Program-made: the position numbers and the translations under genes
Shown: one piece after another, positions 807 through 7,485 of the stretch
How the letters are laid out: the number at the start of each line of letters is the position of its first letter
How positions within the stretch are numbered: the first letter of the stretch is position 1
Notes under the pieces: model-generated
The model's database searches: none
What the model was told of the DNA's origin: nothing
What the model saw: the letters and a program-made list of their open reading frames with translations, nothing else
IMG/VR virus record: IMGVR_UViG_3300045988_006728
DNA from: a virus
Taxonomy: Duplodnaviria; Heunggongvirae; Uroviricota; Caudoviricetes
Reading direction: 5' to 3' (one strand)
DNA length: 64,000 nt

Positions 807-2222
807 ATGAGCGAATTATTCAAACATGCGCACCTTCATGCAGGTCGAACTGAAAATGGTGCTGTAAACCATACTTCATCAATGTCTGCTCTTGTAGACT
901 TTTACAAAGCTGCTGGTTCAAGCCGTAGCAACGTAGAAATCTTACCAGACCTGTTCTACAAAGCTTTGCGTGAGGATGTTGATGTTGCAGTTCGTATTTT
1001 GCTTCATATGCGAGATGTACGAGAAGGTATGGGTGAGCGTAAAGCCTTCAGAACTGTTTTACTTCAAGCGATTGAAGACAAAGTTTTAGAGCCTACGCAG
1101 GTTCTTCGCATTATGGATAAGATTGCAGAACTTGGTCGTTTTGATGACTTCAAAATCTTCGTAGGTACTCGTTTCGAGACAGATGCCTTCAAACATCTAG
1201 AAGCAGCATTACTAGACCCTGCAACAGCAGGTTTGGCGGCTAAGTGGTTACCACGAGTCAAACCACGTCATAAGCAGTTTGTAAAACGTTTCTGCAAGTT
1301 TGCCAACTTGAGTGAGAAAGAGTACCGCACACTGTTGTCTGCACTATCTGATACAGTTGAGCAAAAAATCTCTGCTAATGAGTTTGGTAAGATTGACTAC
1401 AGTAAGATTCCTTCACTTGCTGCTGCACGTTACCAAAAACTGTTTAACCGCAAAGATGGAGAACGCTACAAAGCTTACATCGAGTCCTTATCAAAGGGTG
1501 AGGCTAAGATTAATGCTGGTGCTGTTTACCCATACGATGTAATTAAATCTGTTAAGCATGGTAATGCAGATGTTGCTAATGAGCAGTGGAAAGCACTACC
1601 AAACTGGATGGCAGAGGGTGAAAACATCTTGTGTATGTCTGATGTTTCAAGCTCAATGTCTTGGGTGAATTTTGGTTCAATTACTGCTCTTGATATTGGT
1701 GTTTCACTTGCATTGTATGTAGCAGAACGTAATACAGGTTGCTTTAAGAATGAGTTGATGGTTTATTCAACAAACCCTCACTTCATCGAACTGAGTGGTG
1801 ATTTACGAAACCGTAATCGTCAGGTGATGCGACACGTTGAATATGGCTCAACTAACTTACAAGCAGCTTTTGACCGCATTCTTGAGATAGGTAAGAGAAA
1901 CAACTTGACTCAGAAAGATATGCCAAGTAAGCTTATCATCTTCTCCGATATGGAGTTCAATCAGGTTGATGGGGCTAACGGTCGTACAAACTTTGAAGCA
2001 ATTCAGAGTAAGTACAAAAAAGCTGGATACGAAATGCCTCAACTGGTATTCTGGTACTTAGCAAACCGTAATGGTACTTGCGAAGTGTCTGTTAAGGATA
2101 ACGGTGTAGCAATGGTATCTGGTTTTTCTCCAGCTACTTTAAAAGCTCTGCTTGGTGGTGAGAAGTTTGACCCAATCAGCGTAATGCTCAAAGCAGTAAT
2201 GATTGACCGTTATATCTGGTAA
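807..2222 (+). CDS. vWA-domain protein with MIDAS motif (D-V-S-S-S); possible TROVE/Ro60-like RNA-binding protein
   Basis: 471-aa ORF; DxSxS at ILCMSDVSSSMS about residue 276 with hydrophobic beta-strand context; helical N-terminal domain beginning TENGAV...LVDFYKAAGS, loosely like the Ro60 N-terminus as recalled. Confidence 0.45.
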   Translation: MSELFKHAHLHAGRTENGAVNHTSSMSALVDFYKAAGSSRSNVEILPDLFYKALREDVDVAVRILLHMRDVREGMGERKAFRTVLLQAIEDKVLEPTQVLRIMDKIAELGRFDDFKIFVGTRFETDAFKHLEAALLDPATAGLAAKWLPRVKPRHKQFVKRFCKFANLSEKEYRTLLSALSDTVEQKISANEFGKIDYSKIPSLAAARYQKLFNRKDGERYKAYIESLSKGEAKINAGAVYPYDVIKSVKHGNADVANEQWKALPNWMAEGENILCMSDVSSSMSWVNFGSITALDIGVSLALYVAERNTGCFKNELMVYSTNPHFIELSGDLRNRNRQVMRHVEYGSTNLQAAFDRILEIGKRNNLTQKDMPSKLIIFSDMEFNQVDGANGRTNFEAIQSKYKKAGYEMPQLVFWYLANRNGTCEVSVKDNGVAMVSGFSPATLKALLGGEKFDPISVMLKAVMIDRYIW

Positions 2223-2387: not shown

Positions 2388-2464
2388 CTCTGTTTAGCTC
2401 AGCTTGGTAGAGCGTTCCGTTTGGGGCGGTAAGGCCGGAGGTTCAAGTCCTCCAACAGAGACCA
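2388..2464 (+). tRNA. tRNA-Pro (anticodon TGG)
   Basis: Acceptor ctctgtt/aacagag, D-arm gctc-agcttggta-gagc, T-arm ggagg-ttcaagt-cctcc, anticodon loop tttgggg, encoded CCA. Confidence 0.7.
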
Positions 2465-2471
2465 AATTAAT

Positions 2472-2549
2472 GTTCCAGTAGACAAAATGGTAAAGTCACC
2501 ACTCTTTCAAAGTGGATATCTGAGGGTTCAAATCCCTTCTGGAACGCCA
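2472..2549 (+). tRNA. tRNA-Glu (anticodon TTC)
   Basis: Acceptor gttccag/ctggaac, anticodon stem ccact/agtgg with loop ctttcaa, T-loop ttcaaat, CCA. Confidence 0.7.
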
Positions 2550-2556
2550 GTTTTGA

Positions 2557-2628
2557 CAGAAGACCAATTACAGCAAACTTAATCTACTCATCTGACACGA
2601 AATCGGACAAAGAAGATATTTGGTCTGG
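2557..2628 (+). ncRNA. Structured inter-tRNA element, unit 1 (A box CAGAAGACC ... B box GGTCTGG); candidate Y RNA-like stem-loop
   Basis: AGACC of the A box pairs with GGTCT of the B box; conserved TaCAGCAA follows the A box; same framing repeated at three other sites. Confidence 0.35.
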
Positions 2629-2639
2629 TCATTGAGAAT

Positions 2640-2716
2640 TGCGGGTATAGAGAAAGGGCGTCTCACATGTCTCATTAGCATGGTATCGGCAGGTTCGACT
2701 CCTGCACCCGCCTCCA
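2640..2716 (+). tRNA. tRNA-Met (anticodon CAT)
   Basis: Anticodon stem catgt/gcatg with loop ctcatta, T-arm gcagg-ttcgact-cctgc, CCA; first acceptor pair mismatched and position 37 is T. Confidence 0.55.
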
Positions 2717-2722
2717 ATTTTG

Positions 2723-2782
2723 CAGAAGACCGTATTCAGCAACAAAATACTTTTTGCGGATAAAAGAAAAAACACGGTCTGG
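2723..2782 (+). ncRNA. Structured inter-tRNA element, unit 2 (A/B box framed)
   Basis: CAGAAGACCgtaTtCAGCAA at 2723 and GGTCTGG at 2776; the inner helix shows compensatory changes relative to unit 1. Confidence 0.35.
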
Positions 2783-2793
2783 CAATGTATTAA

Positions 2794-2870
2794 GGTTAGG
2801 AAGCACATAAGGTATGTGCGGTCGCCTGTTAAGCGAATGGCACAGGGTTCGAATCCCTGACTAACCGCCA
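2794..2870 (+). tRNA. tRNA-Asn (anticodon GTT)
   Basis: Anticodon loop ctgttaa, T-arm caggg-ttcgaat-ccctg, acceptor 3' strand actaacc, CCA. Confidence 0.65.
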
Positions 2871-2879
2871 AATTTAAAT

Positions 2880-2967
2880 GTGTCGTTATCCCGTAGATGG
2901 TAGCGGTGGGGACTGTAAATCCCTTGTCATTGAGACTCGGTAGGTTCGACTCCTACACGGCACACCA
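2880..2967 (+). tRNA. tRNA-Tyr (anticodon GTA), class II with long variable arm
   Basis: 88 nt; anticodon stem gggga/tccct with loop ctgtaaa; T-arm gtagg-ttcgact-cctac; CCA. Confidence 0.65.
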
Positions 2968-2972
2968 ATAAA

Positions 2973-3050
2973 GGTTATGTAGTTTAATTTGGTTAAAATA
3001 CTCCCCTGTCACGGGAGATGATGAGGGTTCAAATCCCTTCGTAACCGCCA
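2973..3050 (+). tRNA. tRNA-Asp (anticodon GTC)
   Basis: Anticodon stem ctccc/gggag with loop ctgtcac; T-loop ttcaaat; CCA. Confidence 0.65.
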
Positions 3051-3111
3051 ATTTTGAGAGGGCTATTTAGCCCCTCCCTTAAAGGGTTCTTACGAGTATC
3101 CTTTAAAGGAG

Positions 3112-3184
3112 CAGAAGACCAAATACAGCAAGAACGTATGAAATTTCAAGCCAATTTAATTTTGAAAATTTAAACTTGGTCTGG
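3112..3184 (+). ncRNA. Structured inter-tRNA element, unit 3a (A/B box framed)
   Basis: CAGAAGACCaaaTaCAGCAA at 3112 and GGTCTGG at 3178. Confidence 0.35.
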
Positions 3185-3197
3185 CTCAACAAATTTA

Positions 3198-3329
3198 CAG
3201 AAGACCGTTTACAGCAAAACTTAAACAATCTATTTCTCCGGTAAAGAAAAGGCGAAGGTTCGATTCCTTCACTCGGCAGATGTCGAGTTGGTGTAATGGT
3301 AGCACTTAAGATGATAAACAACGGTCTGG
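3198..3329 (+). ncRNA. Structured element, unit 3b, with internal tRNA-mimic domain; candidate YrlA-like Y RNA
   Basis: A box at 3198 and B box at 3323 frame a T-arm (gaagg-ttcgatt-ccttc, 3254-3270), a 7-bp acceptor-like helix closed by a 4-nt loop (actcggc-agat-gtcgagt, 3271-3288) and a D-arm (gtg-taatggtag-cac); there is no anticodon arm. Confidence 0.4.
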
Positions 3330-3330
3330 T

Positions 3331-3474
3331 AATTATCTTTGTAGATAAGTTATTAAGCTTACCTGTGAGTATGCGACCACAAAGGGTGAAAGGGTAAATT
3401 CTAGATTTAAACCCAAAAAGGCACATCGCTACAGACCTTAAGCAAGTCTGGGTAGCTTATCTACAAAGATAATT
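3331..3474 (+). repeat. Perfect 19-bp inverted repeat (AATTATCTTTGTAGATAAG) flanking a 106-bp structured segment
   Basis: 3331-3349 is the exact reverse complement of 3456-3474; the interior holds further hairpins (cagac-N8-gtctg); ends 4 nt before tRNA-Lys. Confidence 0.6.
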
Positions 3475-3478
3475 TAAT

Positions 3479-3554
3479 GGAAGTGTAGCAGAATGGTGAT
3501 GCGGCAGACTTTTAATCTGACAGGCGATGGGTTCGAATCCCTCCACTTCTACCA
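3479..3554 (+). tRNA. tRNA-Lys (anticodon TTT)
   Basis: Anticodon loop cttttaa, D-loop aatggtga, T-loop ttcgaat, acceptor ggaagtg/cacttct, CCA; paralog of the tRNA at 5201. Confidence 0.7.
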
Positions 3555-3558
3555 ATAT

Positions 3559-3635
3559 GGTTCAGTCGCAGATAAGGTAATGCAGGGGTCTCATAAGCCC
3601 TATGAATGTGGGTTCGATTCCCATCTGAACCTCCA
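3559..3635 (+). tRNA. tRNA with anticodon CAT (Met, fMet or Ile2)
   Basis: Perfect acceptor ggttcag/ctgaacc, anticodon loop ctcataa, T-loop ttcgatt, CCA. Confidence 0.7.
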
Positions 3636-3636
3636 A

Positions 3637-3712
3637 GCTGGTATAGTTAAGAAGGTTATAACACTCCCCTGATAAGGGAACATCGGTGGTTCGATTCCAC
3701 CTACCAGTACCA
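3637..3712 (+). tRNA. tRNA-Ile (anticodon GAT)
   Basis: Anticodon loop ctgataa, T-arm ggtgg-ttcgatt-ccacc, CCA. Confidence 0.7.
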
Positions 3713-3723
3713 ATTTCAATAAA

Positions 3724-3759
3724 GTTGTTGACATTGAGATGTGACTACTTTATAGTAAC
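3724..3759 (+). promoter_or_regulatory. Sigma70-like promoter (TTGACA-17-TATAGT)
   Basis: Strong -35/-10 match; followed by about 230 nt of structured non-coding sequence before tRNA-Arg. Confidence 0.5.
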
Positions 3760-3987
3760 CTTAGTTTTCGTTGCGTAGCGTCTATTTTGCAAATTTAAAA
3801 TAAATGCAAACGACAATGTTTTTCTGGCAGTAGCTTGATAGGCTAAACACCAGTGAGGTCTTCCAATCCCTCATCAAAGAATTTGGCGTACTCGCCCACG
3901 GTATGATTAATAATGTGGGCAACACTCTAAAGGGTATCCCTTATGGGTCTTGGCTTAAATGCAATAAGTACCCTTTAAAATGTTAAT

Positions 3988-4064
3988 GCACCCTTAGTTC
4001 AATTGGATAGAGCAACGGTCTTCTAAATCGTTAGTTACAGGTTCGAATCCTGTAGGGTGTGCCA
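3988..4064 (+). tRNA. tRNA-Arg (anticodon TCT)
   Basis: Anticodon stem acggt/atcgt with loop cttctaa; T-loop ttcgaat; acceptor gcaccct/agggtgt; CCA. Confidence 0.7.
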
Positions 4065-4207
4065 ATTTAGTTAGCAGATTGCTTAGACGACCTTATCGGG
4101 TCTCCGTGTAAGGAGGTGGTCTGTATCTCATGTTTTCCAGAACATGTAAATAATCTGAGAAGGTGCTTTACAGTGTTGAGATAATACGGTAAGCTTCGAA
4201 TTATAGT

Positions 4208-4290
4208 GTGGGACGATGTTAAGACTCTAAGGCATGAGCAACGGCCTCCAAAACCGTTTCAAAGTGGTTCAACTCCTCCGTCCCATGCCA
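4208..4290 (+). tRNA. Atypical tRNA-like gene, anticodon loop ctCCAaa (Trp?), 8-bp acceptor helix
   Basis: 8-bp helix gtgggacg/cgtcccat, discriminator G, CCA and T-loop ttcaact are present, but the D-region is about 8 nt too long for a canonical fold. Confidence 0.35.
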
Positions 4291-4303
4291 AAGTCTTATT
4301 AGG

Positions 4304-4393
4304 GGTAGGTAGCGGCTAATGGTAGCCAAACTGTCTTGAAAACAGTTGCCACTGTAGAGATACGGTGAGGGTTCGACTCCTTTACTTACCGCC
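4304..4393 (+). tRNA. tRNA-Ser (anticodon TGA), class II
   Basis: 90 nt; anticodon stem actgt/acagt with loop cttgaaa; long variable arm; T-loop ttcgact; discriminator G; only CC of CCA encoded. Confidence 0.65.
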
Positions 4394-4662
4394 TAATAAG
4401 ATTTAAAGCCAAGCTTCATTCGGATGTTGCTTTGGTATCCCTCGTGTATTGTCGTACACGCACAGTAAAGCACCTAGTAGGTGTCACGGAGAAGAGATAA
4501 TATCAAGCTCTCCAAAGGTTCTAGTCACCGGATTAAACAAGACTATGCAAAGACCTTTTTAGGTCTTTTTAGAGGGCTTCTAAGGTTATTACAGCTTGTT
4601 GTGGAACCTTGTTGCTTAGGTTCTTAGAAGTTCTCTAAAAAGATTTAATGGGAGATTGACAT

Positions 4663-5115
4663 ATGGCACGTAGCAGTTTGACTAAAGATATTCTTGAACC
4701 TTTAGTAAAGGGTTCAGTATCATTCAGAGAAGTGCTTATAAAGCTTGGGAGAAAACCATCAGGTGGTTCTCAGTCACATCTAAAGCGTGTTATAGAGAAG
4801 TTTGAAATAGACACTTCTCATTTCCTCGGACAAAAGGCTGGTAAGATTAAAACTGTACCAAAAAGAAAGCCTGAAGAAATCTTAATTCTACGTGAATCTG
4901 GTGAAAGAGCAAGGTCTTCACAACTAAGAAGAGCTTTAATAGCATCTGGTATCGAATACAAATGCTCTAAATGCGGTCAGTTACCGGAGTGGTTGGGCAA
5001 CCCTCTAACTCTTGATGTTGACCACATTAATGAGAACTGGTTAGATGATAGAAAAGAGAATCTTCGGTTCTTATGTCCAAATTGCCACAGTCAATTCTCA
5101 AGGCATTTGATTTAA
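4663..5115 (+). CDS. HNH homing endonuclease inside the tRNA array
   Basis: 150-aa ORF with C-terminal HNH signature DVDHINENW...RFLCPNCHSQ; stop codon lies 2 nt before the next tRNA. Confidence 0.7.
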   Translation: MARSSLTKDILEPLVKGSVSFREVLIKLGRKPSGGSQSHLKRVIEKFEIDTSHFLGQKAGKIKTVPKRKPEEILILRESGERARSSQLRRALIASGIEYKCSKCGQLPEWLGNPLTLDVDHINENWLDDRKENLRFLCPNCHSQFSRHLI

Positions 5116-5116
5116 T

Positions 5117-5193
5117 GCACCTATAGCCCAACTGGTAGAGGCAGCAGACTTAGAATCTGCTCAGTGTGAGTTCGAATCTCTCTAGGTGTACCA
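5117..5193 (+). tRNA. tRNA with anticodon TAG (decodes Leu CUA) but class I, short-variable-arm fold
   Basis: Acceptor gcaccta/taggtgt, anticodon stem gcaga/tctgc with loop cttagaa, T-loop ttcgaat, CCA; variable arm only 5 nt. Confidence 0.55.
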
Positions 5194-5200
5194 AATTAAT

Positions 5201-5276
5201 GCAGGTGTAGCAAAATGGTTATGCGGCTGACTCTTAATCAGTAAGACGATGGGTTCAATTCCCTCCACCTGTACCA
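5201..5276 (+). tRNA. tRNA-Lys (anticodon CTT)
   Basis: Paralog of tRNA-Lys(TTT) at 3479 with a compensatory change in the anticodon stem; loop ctcttaa; CCA. Confidence 0.65.
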
Positions 5277-5282
5277 GACATT

Positions 5283-5358
5283 GGGGATGTAGTTTACATG
5301 GTTAAAACATAAGTTTTGCAAACTTAAGTACAGGGTTCAATTCCCTGCTTCTCCACCA
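5283..5358 (+). tRNA. tRNA-Ala (anticodon TGC)
   Basis: G3-U70 wobble pair in the acceptor stem (ggggatg/cttctcc), anticodon loop tttgcaa, T-arm caggg-ttcaatt-ccctg, CCA. Confidence 0.7.
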
Positions 5359-5364
5359 ATTAGT

Positions 5365-5439
5365 GCATCCATAGTTTAAACGGGAAAATTACAGTCTTCC
5401 AAACTGAGGTTGAGGGTTCGAGTCCCTTCGGATTCTCCA
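5365..5439 (+). tRNA. tRNA-Gly (anticodon TCC), acceptor stem imperfect
   Basis: Anticodon loop cttccaa, T-arm gaggg-ttcgagt-ccctt, CCA; two mismatches in the acceptor helix. Confidence 0.5.
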
Positions 5440-5477
5440 AGTTATTTTACTCTCTCTCAATTAAAATAATAATAATG

Positions 5478-5528
5478 CCCTGCTATAAGTATTCTTCCTT
5501 TCGCTACCGAAGAGTATTTTTAGACAGG
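5478..5528 (+). terminator. Hairpin plus T-run at the end of the tRNA array
   Basis: gccctg...cagggc followed by tttttt. Confidence 0.35.
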
Positions 5529-5661
5529 GCTTTTTTACAGAGTTATACTTTATAGGAAGACTTATACAGTATGTCTCTGACGTACATTGTGGTTTCTCCT
5601 TGACGGTCTCTGTGCCGTCTTTTTTAAGGGGAAACATGGTTAATTATTTGGAGAAAACATA

Positions 5662-5862
5662 ATGAGTGAGACCGTTTACAAAGAACTTTATGAAGCTAAT
5701 AAAAAGCTAGAATTTATGCAGAACACTATCATGGCAATTGCAGATAGATTATCTGTAGCAACAGGTATTGATATTAAAGAAGCATCTATGGATGCACTTC
5801 TTGATGCTGTTGATGCAAAGTTCGAAGTTAAGAAAGAAGAGACTGCTACAGACTCTGAATAA
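5662..5862 (+). CDS. Hypothetical small protein upstream of the large terminase (small terminase role unproven)
   Basis: 66-aa ORF tightly coupled to the terminase gene. Confidence 0.35.
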   Translation: MSETVYKELYEANKKLEFMQNTIMAIADRLSVATGIDIKEASMDALLDAVDAKFEVKKEETATDSE

Positions 5863-5883
5863 TTCTATTTGCGGAGGCGCTTA

Positions 5884-7485
5884 ATGGACTTAAATGCTGT
5901 TAAGCAGAAGCGAGTGGAAGATGTTAGGAAAGTCCTAGCTGGAGAGTTGGGGCTTTCTGATGAAGTAAAAGAAATTATTAAATCATTCGGTAAAGACCCC
6001 TCTAAATTCCTTCCAACTCAAATTCTGACTTTATTAAGATACACACCAGACCAAGTTCGCCTTATCTTTAAATTGATGACTGATAAGAACTATGTAGCCC
6101 CTCAGCCGGGTTCTCAAGAGGTCTTTTTAAATACTAATGCTGACTTGGTTCTCTATGGTGGTGCTGCTGGTGCTGGTAAGACTGCCGCATTGTTAATGGA
6201 CTCTTTAAGATTTATTGAAGACCCTAACTATAATGCTGTATATTTCCGTCGAAATACAACACAGTTACAAGGTGGTTTATGGCCTGCTGCAAAGAAACTA
6301 TTTGGTAAGTTTGGTGGGATTCCTCACGAGCAGAAAATGACTATCACATTCCCTTCTGGGGCAACTATCAAGTTTACCTACCTAGAACTTGAAAAGCACG
6401 CTGAAGGTCATCAGGGTATTGAATACTCAGCTATTTACTTTGACGAAGGTACACACTTCTCTGCTTCACAGATTTCATACCTACAAACCCGTCTACGTTC
6501 TGGTGCTGAAGGCGATTCATACATGAAGATTTCCATGAACCCAGACAGAGACCACTTTATTTACGATTGGGTAGAGCCATTCTTAGATGAAGAAGGCTAC
6601 CCAGACCCTGAAAAATGTGGTCGTATTCGTTGGTATGTAATGAACGATGGCGTGATGGTTTCTGATTGGGAGAGAGACAAGATTCTTGAAATGTTCCCCC
6701 TTGAGATTCCTCAAACATACACCTTTATTTCTGGTACGATTGATGATAACCCAATCCTTGACTTCTTAGAGCCTAAGTACCGTGGTAAGCTGGAAAACAA
6801 CACTCCTTTAAACGTTGCAAGACTTCGTTTCGGTAACTGGAAGGCTCGTGCAGAAGGTTCAAACTATTGGCAAAGACAATGGTGTGAAATTGTTGATTCA
6901 CTCCCAGAAGATGTATTTGATGTTAGAGCATGGGACTTAGCAGCAACTTTACCATCTGAGATTAACCCTAATCCAGACTGGACAGCAGGTGTTAAGATGG
7001 GTAAATCTAAAAAAGACGGTTGCTATTATATCATTGATGTAGTAAGATTTAGAGATAGACCCTCTGGAGTCGAAACACAAATTAATTTGACTGCTGAAAG
7101 TGACGGTAAGCGAACTGGTATTTTTATCCCTCAAGACCCAGGCGCTGCTGGTAAATCCTACGCAACATCCCTCATCAGGAAACTTGCCGAGAAAGGTTAT
7201 CGAGCAAGAGCCAAACCAACAAATAAAGATAAAGTTACCCGCTTTGCGGGATTTTCTGCTGCTTCTGAAGCTGGACTTGTAAAAGTCTTGAGAGGTAGTT
7301 GGAATGAAGCTTACTTTCAAGAGCTTGAAGGCTTTTGTGGTGATGGCAAAACTAAAGATGACCAAGTGGATGCTACCAGTGATGCTTTCAACAGTCTTAA
7401 CGAAGTTAAATTATTCAAGCCACCATCAATGGGCGCTCACACAGACTTAGTGAGGGGAAACCCATATGAGGGGCTTAGACGTTGA
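5884..7485 (+). CDS. Terminase large subunit
   Basis: Walker A LYGGAAGAGKT and a C-terminal nuclease-like region; GGAGG RBS before ATG at 5884 (the track ORF begins at 5869). Confidence 0.8.
   Translation: MDLNAVKQKRVEDVRKVLAGELGLSDEVKEIIKSFGKDPSKFLPTQILTLLRYTPDQVRLIFKLMTDKNYVAPQPGSQEVFLNTNADLVLYGGAAGAGKTAALLMDSLRFIEDPNYNAVYFRRNTTQLQGGLWPAAKKLFGKFGGIPHEQKMTITFPSGATIKFTYLELEKHAEGHQGIEYSAIYFDEGTHFSASQISYLQTRLRSGAEGDSYMKISMNPDRDHFIYDWVEPFLDEEGYPDPEKCGRIRWYVMNDGVMVSDWERDKILEMFPLEIPQTYTFISGTIDDNPILDFLEPKYRGKLENNTPLNVARLRFGNWKARAEGSNYWQRQWCEIVDSLPEDVFDVRAWDLAATLPSEINPNPDWTAGVKMGKSKKDGCYYIIDVVRFRDRPSGVETQINLTAESDGKRTGIFIPQDPGAAGKSYATSLIRKLAEKGYRARAKPTNKDKVTRFAGFSAASEAGLVKVLRGSWNEAYFQELEGFCGDGKTKDDQVDATSDAFNSLNEVKLFKPPSMGAHTDLVRGNPYEGLRR

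Follow-up and report, generated by a model that had tools for sequence, protein, structure and literature searches.

A type I tRNALeu(UAG) gene in the tRNA cluster of a Felix O1-like phage

Almost all prokaryotic tRNALeu are stated to be type II (PMC6614811). A described exception is the type I tRNALeu(CAA) of Streptomyces coelicolor, which carries the variable loop ACAGC and is leucylated by ScoLeuRS (Fan et al. 2019, NAR, PMC6614811). Another is implied for Mycobacterium tuberculosis by the MenT3 paper, in which only three of the five tRNALeu have long loops (PMC11541572). The determinants of E. coli LeuRS (EcLeuRS) are A73, A14, the A15-U48 Levitt pair, G18G19 with A20a, and D/T-loop contacts, and the enzyme needs neither the anticodon nor the long variable arm, a tRNALeu truncated of both arms still being a substrate (PMC9976931, PMC6614811). 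At 1 nM, EcLeuRS gave no leucylation of the S. coelicolor type I tRNALeu(CAA), and it is described as an enzyme that "only charges type II", with a leucine-specific domain said to favour large variable loops (PMC6614811). We found no description in the literature of short-armed tRNALeu as a phage or phage-wide feature, and the 2025 paper on the tRNAs of Shigella phage Sf14 (PMC12482277) never mentions the variable arm.

We investigated a tRNA gene in a 64,000-nt viral sequence, IMG/VR record IMGVR_UViG_3300045988_006728 (hereafter the window). The window is a Felix O1-like myovirus (Ounavirinae; hosts E. coli, Salmonella and Shigella), and its region 4300-6000 matched 258 phage records, nearly all of that group. 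The target gene lies at 5117-5193 on the plus strand, and its parts are as follows.

5117 to 5193, plus strand: type I tRNALeu(UAG) gene, 77 nt with encoded CCA (ARAGORN, Rfam RF00005, identity with Ounavirinae genes)
5117 to 5123, plus strand: 5' strand of the acceptor stem, GCACCUA, with its partner UAGGUGU at 5183-5189; the first pair is a G1.U72 wobble (sequence)
Plus strand, U8A9 between the acceptor stem and the D arm, and A26 after the D arm (sequence)
5126 to 5142, plus strand: Leu-type D arm, 3-bp stem GCC/GGC with the 11-nt loop CAACUGGUAGA (layout as in E. coli tRNALeu)
5149 to 5155, plus strand: anticodon loop CUUAGAA with anticodon UAG at 5151-5153 and A37 (ARAGORN, anticodon at gene position 35; Rfam)
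5161 to 5165, plus strand: variable loop UCAGU, 5 nt, ending in U48, the Levitt partner of A15 (sequence)
5166 to 5182, plus strand: T arm GUGAG-UUCGAAU-CUCUC with one U.U mismatch (sequence, Rfam)
5190 to 5193, plus strand: discriminator A73, then encoded CCA (sequence)

ARAGORN called tRNA-Leu(tag) over exactly this span, with the 77 nt including the encoded CCA. The Rfam tRNA model RF00005 matched 5117-5190 over its full length (model positions 1-71) with a score of 57.3 bits against a gathering score of 29 (E ~1e-10 to 1e-12), which places the gene among the tRNAs. The Rfam alignment put the anticodon loop CUUAGAA in register and gave a 5-nt variable region, UCAGU, and the only non-standard pairs that it flagged were C13.A22 and the one T-stem U.U; the anticodon stem is GCAGA/UCUGC. 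A type I (class I) tRNA has a variable region of 4-5 nt and no extra stem, which is what the 74 nt plus CCA of the target show, whereas the class II hallmark is a stem-containing variable arm longer than 10 nt. Because its variable loop is just 5 nt, the gene was filed as a type I tRNALeu and not as a canonical class II tRNALeu. The first-pass annotation, which had described a class I tRNA of 76-77 nt with a 5-nt variable loop and a TAG anticodon, was thus correct in every detail.

The target was 100% identical to genes annotated as tRNA-Leu in phage wV8 and many other Ounavirinae, and it was 95-100% conserved across three Ounavirinae genera (Felixounavirus, Suspvirus and Mooglevirus). Substitutions across these genera were confined to loops or to changes from G-C to G.U, and from this alignment the gene looks to be under purifying selection. 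The folding energy of the single sequence was no better than that of shuffles (z = -0.16), with the cloverleaf as the minimum-energy fold; structural support comes from the covariance-model score and from covariation among homologues (below), not from single-sequence folding energy. The target is confirmed as a real, conserved phage tRNA gene.

Every listed determinant of E. coli LeuRS was found in the target. The discriminator A73 is at 5190, A14 and A15 are at 5130-5131, and U48, which forms the trans-Levitt pair with A15, is at 5165. G18G19 and A20a lie in an 11-nt D loop on a 3-bp stem (GCC-CAACUGGUAGA-GGC, against GCG-AAAUUGGUAGA-CGC in E. coli leuW), and the loop reads C13-A14-A15-C-U-G18-G19-U-A20a-G-A22. 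The anticodon UAG at 5151-5153 is one of the Leu anticodons (NAG or YAA). We compared the D arm with those of 25 different tRNAs of E. coli K-12 that together represent all 20 amino acids, including three tRNALeu (UAG, CAG and UAA; 85-87 nt). The layout of a 3-bp stem with an 11-nt loop occurred only in leuW, leuT and leuZ among the 25. Raw D-arm sequence similarity to the same 25 tRNAs did not separate the isotypes, with Val, Trp and Gly scoring as high as Leu; only the stem and loop architecture discriminates the Leu isotype. The G1.U72 pair of the target is also present in E. coli tRNALeu(UAA) and in 56 of the 212 members of the family described below.

The orthologue in phage Sf14 is identical to the target at 76 of 77 positions, the sole difference being at a D-loop position, and its published tRNAscan-SE 2.0 isotype scores are highest for Leu (67.4), followed by Ile2 (65.7), Lys (63.4) and Arg (60.0), so that it was classed as "consistent" (PMC12482277). 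The margin of Leu over Ile2 and Lys is only 2-4 bits (scores from PMC12482277). The CAA and UAA tRNALeu paralogues of Sf14 also score highest for Leu, and the three short Leu tRNAs are all consistent with their top isotype model in a phage in which 14 of the 26 tRNAs are not (PMC12482277). In the RefSeq record of wV8, Tyr, Trp-like and His tRNAs are marked as "tRNA-OTHER" pseudogenes. The tRNA bodies of Ounavirinae are generally far from bacterial isotype models.

We searched for relatives of the target with a body pattern, CCAAYTGGYAGAG-N26-31-GTTCRANTC, which places no constraint on the anticodon, position 48 or position 73. The D-loop motif is part of the pattern, and its conservation in the family therefore holds by construction. 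The pattern matched at least 131 tRNAs (on at least 120 contigs) in IMG/VR and at least 119 tRNAs in GTDB species genomes. Among the matches listed, viral and bacterial, 206 bodies were in register, i.e., with A14A15 at gene position 14, and 203 of them had Leu anticodons. These comprised UAG, CAG, GAG, AAG, CAA and UAA and thus both Leu codon boxes. A73 and U48, neither of which is imposed by the pattern, were invariant in the Leu-anticodon members listed (212/212), and the variable loop was 5 nt in 195 of the 212. A body that is found with every Leu anticodon and with almost no others is expected to be one that specifies Leu identity. These results, together with the LeuRS determinants and the Leu-first isotype scores of the 76/77-identical orthologue, support the proposal of the first-pass annotation that the gene is a non-canonical Leu tRNA.

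Matches to the pattern with Trp, Phe and Thr anticodons were rejected as out of register: their D arm is one nucleotide longer and has a 4-bp stem, and their discriminator is mostly not A. Two IMG/VR tRNAs combined a Leu-type D arm in register and a U at the end of the variable loop with the anticodon GUG (His), and one bacterial copy of the in-register Leu-type body had the anticodon CUU (Lys); these copies may have arisen from the short tRNALeu body by an anticodon shift. The short tRNALeu(UAG) of Enterococcus phage EFDG1 (L004, 144-217) has G1.U72, G3.U70 and A73; the second of these, the determinant that AlaRS recognises universally, could lead to mischarging of this copy with alanine. G.U at 3:70 was present in 3 of the 212 family members listed.

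Covariation was examined in 60 homologues that were mutually less than 80% identical. In this set 97.9% of the cells were paired, and 454 double-sided changes were counted, which fell in 18 of the 20 cloverleaf pairs and included all seven acceptor pairs and four of the five T-stem pairs. None of the 500 shuffles scored as high, and slid controls were 35-46% paired. The target shares the features of this type I lineage, namely A14A15 at position 14, a 5-nt loop ending in U48, A73 and a covarying cloverleaf. The fold and the anticodon-loop register, on which the first-pass annotation had staked its reading, were both upheld by the Rfam score, the in-register CUUAGAA and this covariation.

Distant blastn against 50,697 phage records returned matches to the target in 318, comprising Ounavirinae and others. 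Near-gapless matches of 74-85% to tRNA-Leu genes were found in phages of Mycobacterium, Streptomyces, Gordonia, Enterococcus, Lactobacillus, Klebsiella, Enterobacter, Pseudomonas, Erwinia and Vibrio. ARAGORN calls on ten such distant relatives gave lengths of 74-78 nt throughout; all ten shared the D arm, a U at the end of the variable loop and A73, and their anticodons were UAG, CAG or CAA. Blastn of the target against 5,426 E. coli genomes gave no similarity, so the gene was not copied recently from a host tRNA. Phages wV8 and Sf14 each carry three short tRNALeu (UAG, CAA and UAA) and no long one, and their Ser and Tyr tRNAs keep long arms. In a sample of viral contigs chosen independently of Leu, tRNAs of 79 nt or less made up 20/58 of the tRNALeu, 0/61 of the tRNASer and 0/18 of the tRNATyr. 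The long arm would be dispensable in Leu, and not in Ser or Tyr, because only LeuRS is independent of it. On viral contigs that had both short and long tRNALeu, the anticodons of the two kinds were nearly always different, the same anticodon being shared on 3 of 22 mixed contigs; such complementarity is what ordinary isoacceptors would show. In Streptomyces phage StarPlatinum (L002), a short tRNALeu of 76 nt (151-226) and a long one of 82 nt (239-320) lie 12 nt apart, both with the anticodon UAG, a rare apparent redundancy of the two architectures.

A scan of GTDB showed that short tRNALeu are also common in Actinobacteria. Short tRNALeu(CAA) genes in Mycobacterium, Rhodococcus, Gordonia and Bifidobacterium adjoined a conserved gene of ~200 aa (55-88% identity). 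This conserved neighbour indicates that the actinobacterial CAA copy is a vertically inherited core gene across the phylum, beyond Streptomyces. For the short UAA copies in Actinobacteria, no conserved neighbours were seen across genera. The premise of the first-pass annotation, that bacterial tRNALeu is class II, therefore holds for E. coli (85-87 nt) but not universally, as S. coelicolor (PMC6614811), other Actinobacteria and phages show. Judged by sequence, the short tRNALeu of many phages and Actinobacteria appear to form a large, little-noticed lineage.

The target belongs to a phage tRNA cluster with the following features.

2388 to 5439, plus strand: phage tRNA cluster of 15 genes including the target, in which Ser (90 nt) and Tyr (88 nt) keep long arms (ARAGORN)
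4663 to 5115, plus strand: HNH endonuclease ORF, 150 aa, ending 1 nt before the target (Pfam HNH, E = 7.6e-5)
5602 to 5619, plus strand: terminator-like hairpin and T run, 3' of the last tRNA (consensus scan only)

The HNH segment looks like a mobile homing-endonuclease insertion in the cluster, since it is missing from many relatives that do match on either side, in the tRNA-Ser and tRNA-Leu regions. The hairpin at 5602-5619 is a possible end of the tRNA transcription unit. Comparison of window 5440-5884 with wV8 (L019, 6976-8631) and Sf14 (L382, 16821-18762) showed that the second half of the cluster is missing here, i.e., the genes for Thr, Val, Leu-CAA, Arg-ACG, Gln, Leu-UAA, Gln, His and Phe, plus Ser-GCU and Cys of Sf14. 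The terminase large subunit gene (5884-7485) follows directly after tRNA-Gly. Because this half is absent, the window phage has one of the three short tRNALeu. Between tRNA-Asp and tRNA-Lys, a partial match to the tRNA model (3221-3271, plus strand; 22 bits, below threshold), overlapped by a minus-strand ORF at 3103-3426, may be a tRNA remnant. Immediately upstream of the cluster, 807-2222 (plus strand) encodes a 471-aa protein with DUF2828, DUF7788 and a weak VWA match, preceded by a DUF5681 ORF (353-724). Its homologue is annotated as "RNA-binding protein" in wV8 and Sf14, and the domain combination recalls Ro60-type RNA-binding proteins.

The window has a GC content of 39%, and its codon use differs from that of an E. 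coli sample: CUA occurs at 8.3 per 1000 codons (10% of Leu) against 3.9 (3.5%), and CUU at 22.5 per 1000 against 10.3. In Sf14, the CTA RSCU is likewise higher than in its host (PMC12482277). E. coli has a single, minor tRNALeu(UAG) gene. CUA was not enriched in the structural module and late genes of the window (8.7 versus 8.1 per 1000), and the late-gene CUA frequency, to which the first-pass annotation had looked for a hint of decoding manipulation, offers none. The anticodon loop CUUAGAA differs from UUUAGGU of the host leuW at three positions, with C32, A37 and A38 in place of U32, G37 and U38. The same three differences are reported in Sf14, where they are the largest number of any tRNA of that phage, and such changes have been linked to resistance to anticodon nucleases (PMC12482277). 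The host G37 is the m1G37/TrmD site, and because the target has A37 instead of the m1G37 of the host CUN-reading tRNALeu, its decoding properties may differ. A37 is about as common as G37 among UAG members of the family.

We consider it highly probable that the target encodes a functional type I leucine tRNA, whose body is that of a tRNALeu but with a 5-nt loop in place of the long arm. The gene would be co-transcribed with the phage tRNAs next to it, host enzymes would process the transcript, the CCA end is already encoded, and the product would be charged with leucine by LeuRS of the host (E. coli, Salmonella or Shigella). The failure of EcLeuRS to charge the S. coelicolor tRNA may not transfer to the target, because that tRNA has C48 and the target has U48, the E. 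coli determinant; with U48 present, charging by an enterobacterial LeuRS would be expected. The charged tRNA would decode CUA, and probably CUG or CUU via U34 wobble, and would supplement leucine codons that the AT-rich phage uses more than its host does. The gene would represent an old short-tRNALeu lineage, native to Actinobacteria and widely spread among phages. The target is a type I tRNALeu(UAG) of a known but little-appreciated kind and is not evidence of recoding.

A different account, which we regard as quite unlikely, accepts a working Leu decoder and proposes that the short arm and the altered anticodon loop were selected as a counter-defence against host tRNA-targeting toxins or nucleases, such that the phage tRNA evades recognition of the long arm or of the host loop and sustains Leu decoding under attack. 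The three anticodon-loop differences from the host, with their published link to nuclease resistance (PMC12482277), fit this account, as do the frequency of short tRNALeu in phages (the 20/58 above) and the adjacent type I and type II tRNALeu(UAG) of StarPlatinum. In its favour, too, MenT3, a nucleotidyltransferase toxin of the AbiEii abortive-infection family, anchors on the long variable loop of tRNASer, but it prefers Ser and not Leu (PMC11541572). The retention of long arms by the Ser and Tyr tRNAs of phages and the rarity of type I/type II pairs with the same anticodon (3/22 mixed contigs) also argue against selection by such toxins. Moreover, Actinobacteria carry this architecture in a core gene with conserved synteny, so that no phage-specific rationale is needed. 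To our knowledge, there is no Leu-specific or long-arm-specific tRNA toxin in Enterobacteria.

It is very improbable that the target is a relic that escapes charging, or that its RNA is shaped like a tRNA but serves outside decoding, for instance as a decoy, primer or processing signal. The reported restriction of EcLeuRS to type II tRNALeu (PMC6614811), the T-stem mismatch and the unremarkable folding energy would be compatible with such an RNA. Against it stand the 95-100% conservation in three genera with only loop or wobble-preserving changes, the encoded CCA, a Leu anticodon kept across hundreds of homologues, and co-resident Leu tRNAs that are complementary in anticodon. In addition, wV8 and Sf14 have three short tRNALeu and no long one.

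The CUN reassignments of yeast mitochondria arose via a class I architecture with a Leu anticodon, and they are a precedent for the least credible explanation, a switch of identity in which the class I body is charged with a non-leucine amino acid and the phage recodes CUA. Although Ile2, Lys and Arg score within 2-8 bits of Leu in the Sf14 orthologue (PMC12482277), a switch is opposed by the A3-U70 pair, which makes the target no AlaRS substrate, by U34-A35-G36, which fits no anticodon-dependent set of ValRS, IleRS, MetRS, LysRS, ArgRS or ThrRS (PMC9976931), by the use of CUA at an ordinary Leu-like frequency, and by the occurrence of the body with the full set of Leu anticodons from both boxes and with hardly any other, which is expected only if the body specifies Leu. 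A tRNAAla-type identity was rejected, the pair at 3:70 being A-U and not G.U, and so was a nonsense suppressor: the anticodon 5'-UAG-3' reads the CUA codon and not the UAG stop codon, and it is none of the stop-reading anticodons CUA, UUA and UCA. The altered identity or manipulation of decoding that the first-pass annotation had entertained was not borne out, there being no G3.U70, no stop-codon anticodon and no match to an anticodon-reading synthetase set.

A broader proposition would be that loss of the long arm is a recurrent, phage-favoured adaptation of tRNALeu and not neutral streamlining, that enterobacterial LeuRS charges type I tRNALeu in vivo, and that the short arm and the remodelled loop resist toxins; as a whole, we think it unlikely. 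If it were true, charging by EcLeuRS of a coliphage type I tRNALeu with A15-U48, A73 and a 5-nt loop would contradict the statement that this enzyme charges type II only. An apparent conflict exists in any case, since EcLeuRS is reported to be type II-only and yet whole coliphage lineages carry only short tRNALeu with E. coli determinants. The short tRNALeu of coliphages would be natural substrates for learning what LeuRS needs from the variable region, and as scaffolds they may be of interest for engineering compact Leu-accepting tRNAs. The textbook simplification that bacterial-type tRNALeu is always class II is corrected, as phages of Proteobacteria, Firmicutes and Actinobacteria widely carry the exception, which is not limited to Streptomyces, and short tRNALeu genes should not be flagged in annotation as pseudogenes or oddities. 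The single gene is ordinary in function; the breadth of the phage lineage and the conflict over EcLeuRS are the noteworthy part.

Among known systems, E. coli leuW tRNALeu(UAG) shares with the target the anticodon, the 3-bp/11-nt D arm (NAAYUGGUAGA), A14, A15, U48 and A73, but it is a class II tRNA of 85 nt with a 13-nt stem-loop variable arm, G1-C72, the anticodon loop UUUAGGU and G37, whereas the target has a 5-nt loop, G1.U72 and CUUAGAA. The tRNALeu of T4 and T5 are, like the target, Leu isoacceptors that coliphages encode in tRNA clusters with HNH genes scattered among them; that of T4 is class II, and T5 tRNALeu(UAG), with 85 nt, is also class II, unlike the target. In Mycobacterium, a short-loop tRNALeu(TAG) has been noted in a horizontally acquired, mobile tRNA cluster with an HNH endonuclease, as for the target; that case is chromosomal and was reported in a single sentence, without an analysis of identity elements or a general link to phages (Behra et al. 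2019, PMC6582537). In animal mitochondrial type I tRNALeu the variable loop is likewise short, and A73 and A14 are determinants (PMC9976931), but these tRNAs form a separate lineage with a dedicated mitochondrial LeuRS and a degenerate structure, and ScoLeuRS does not charge them (PMC6614811). The S. coelicolor tRNALeu(CAA) resembles the target in being of the bacterial type with a 5-nt variable loop (ACAGC there, UCAGU in the target); it coexists with type II tRNAs, and 5 nt is the minimum loop length for its activity (PMC6614811). In ScoLeuRS the leucine-specific domain is adapted, and A73 does not serve as a determinant for this enzyme (PMC6614811). The two tRNAs differ in the anticodon (CAA versus UAG), in position 48 (C48 versus U48) and in setting, the former being chromosomal in a high-GC actinobacterium and the target being phage-borne in Enterobacteria.
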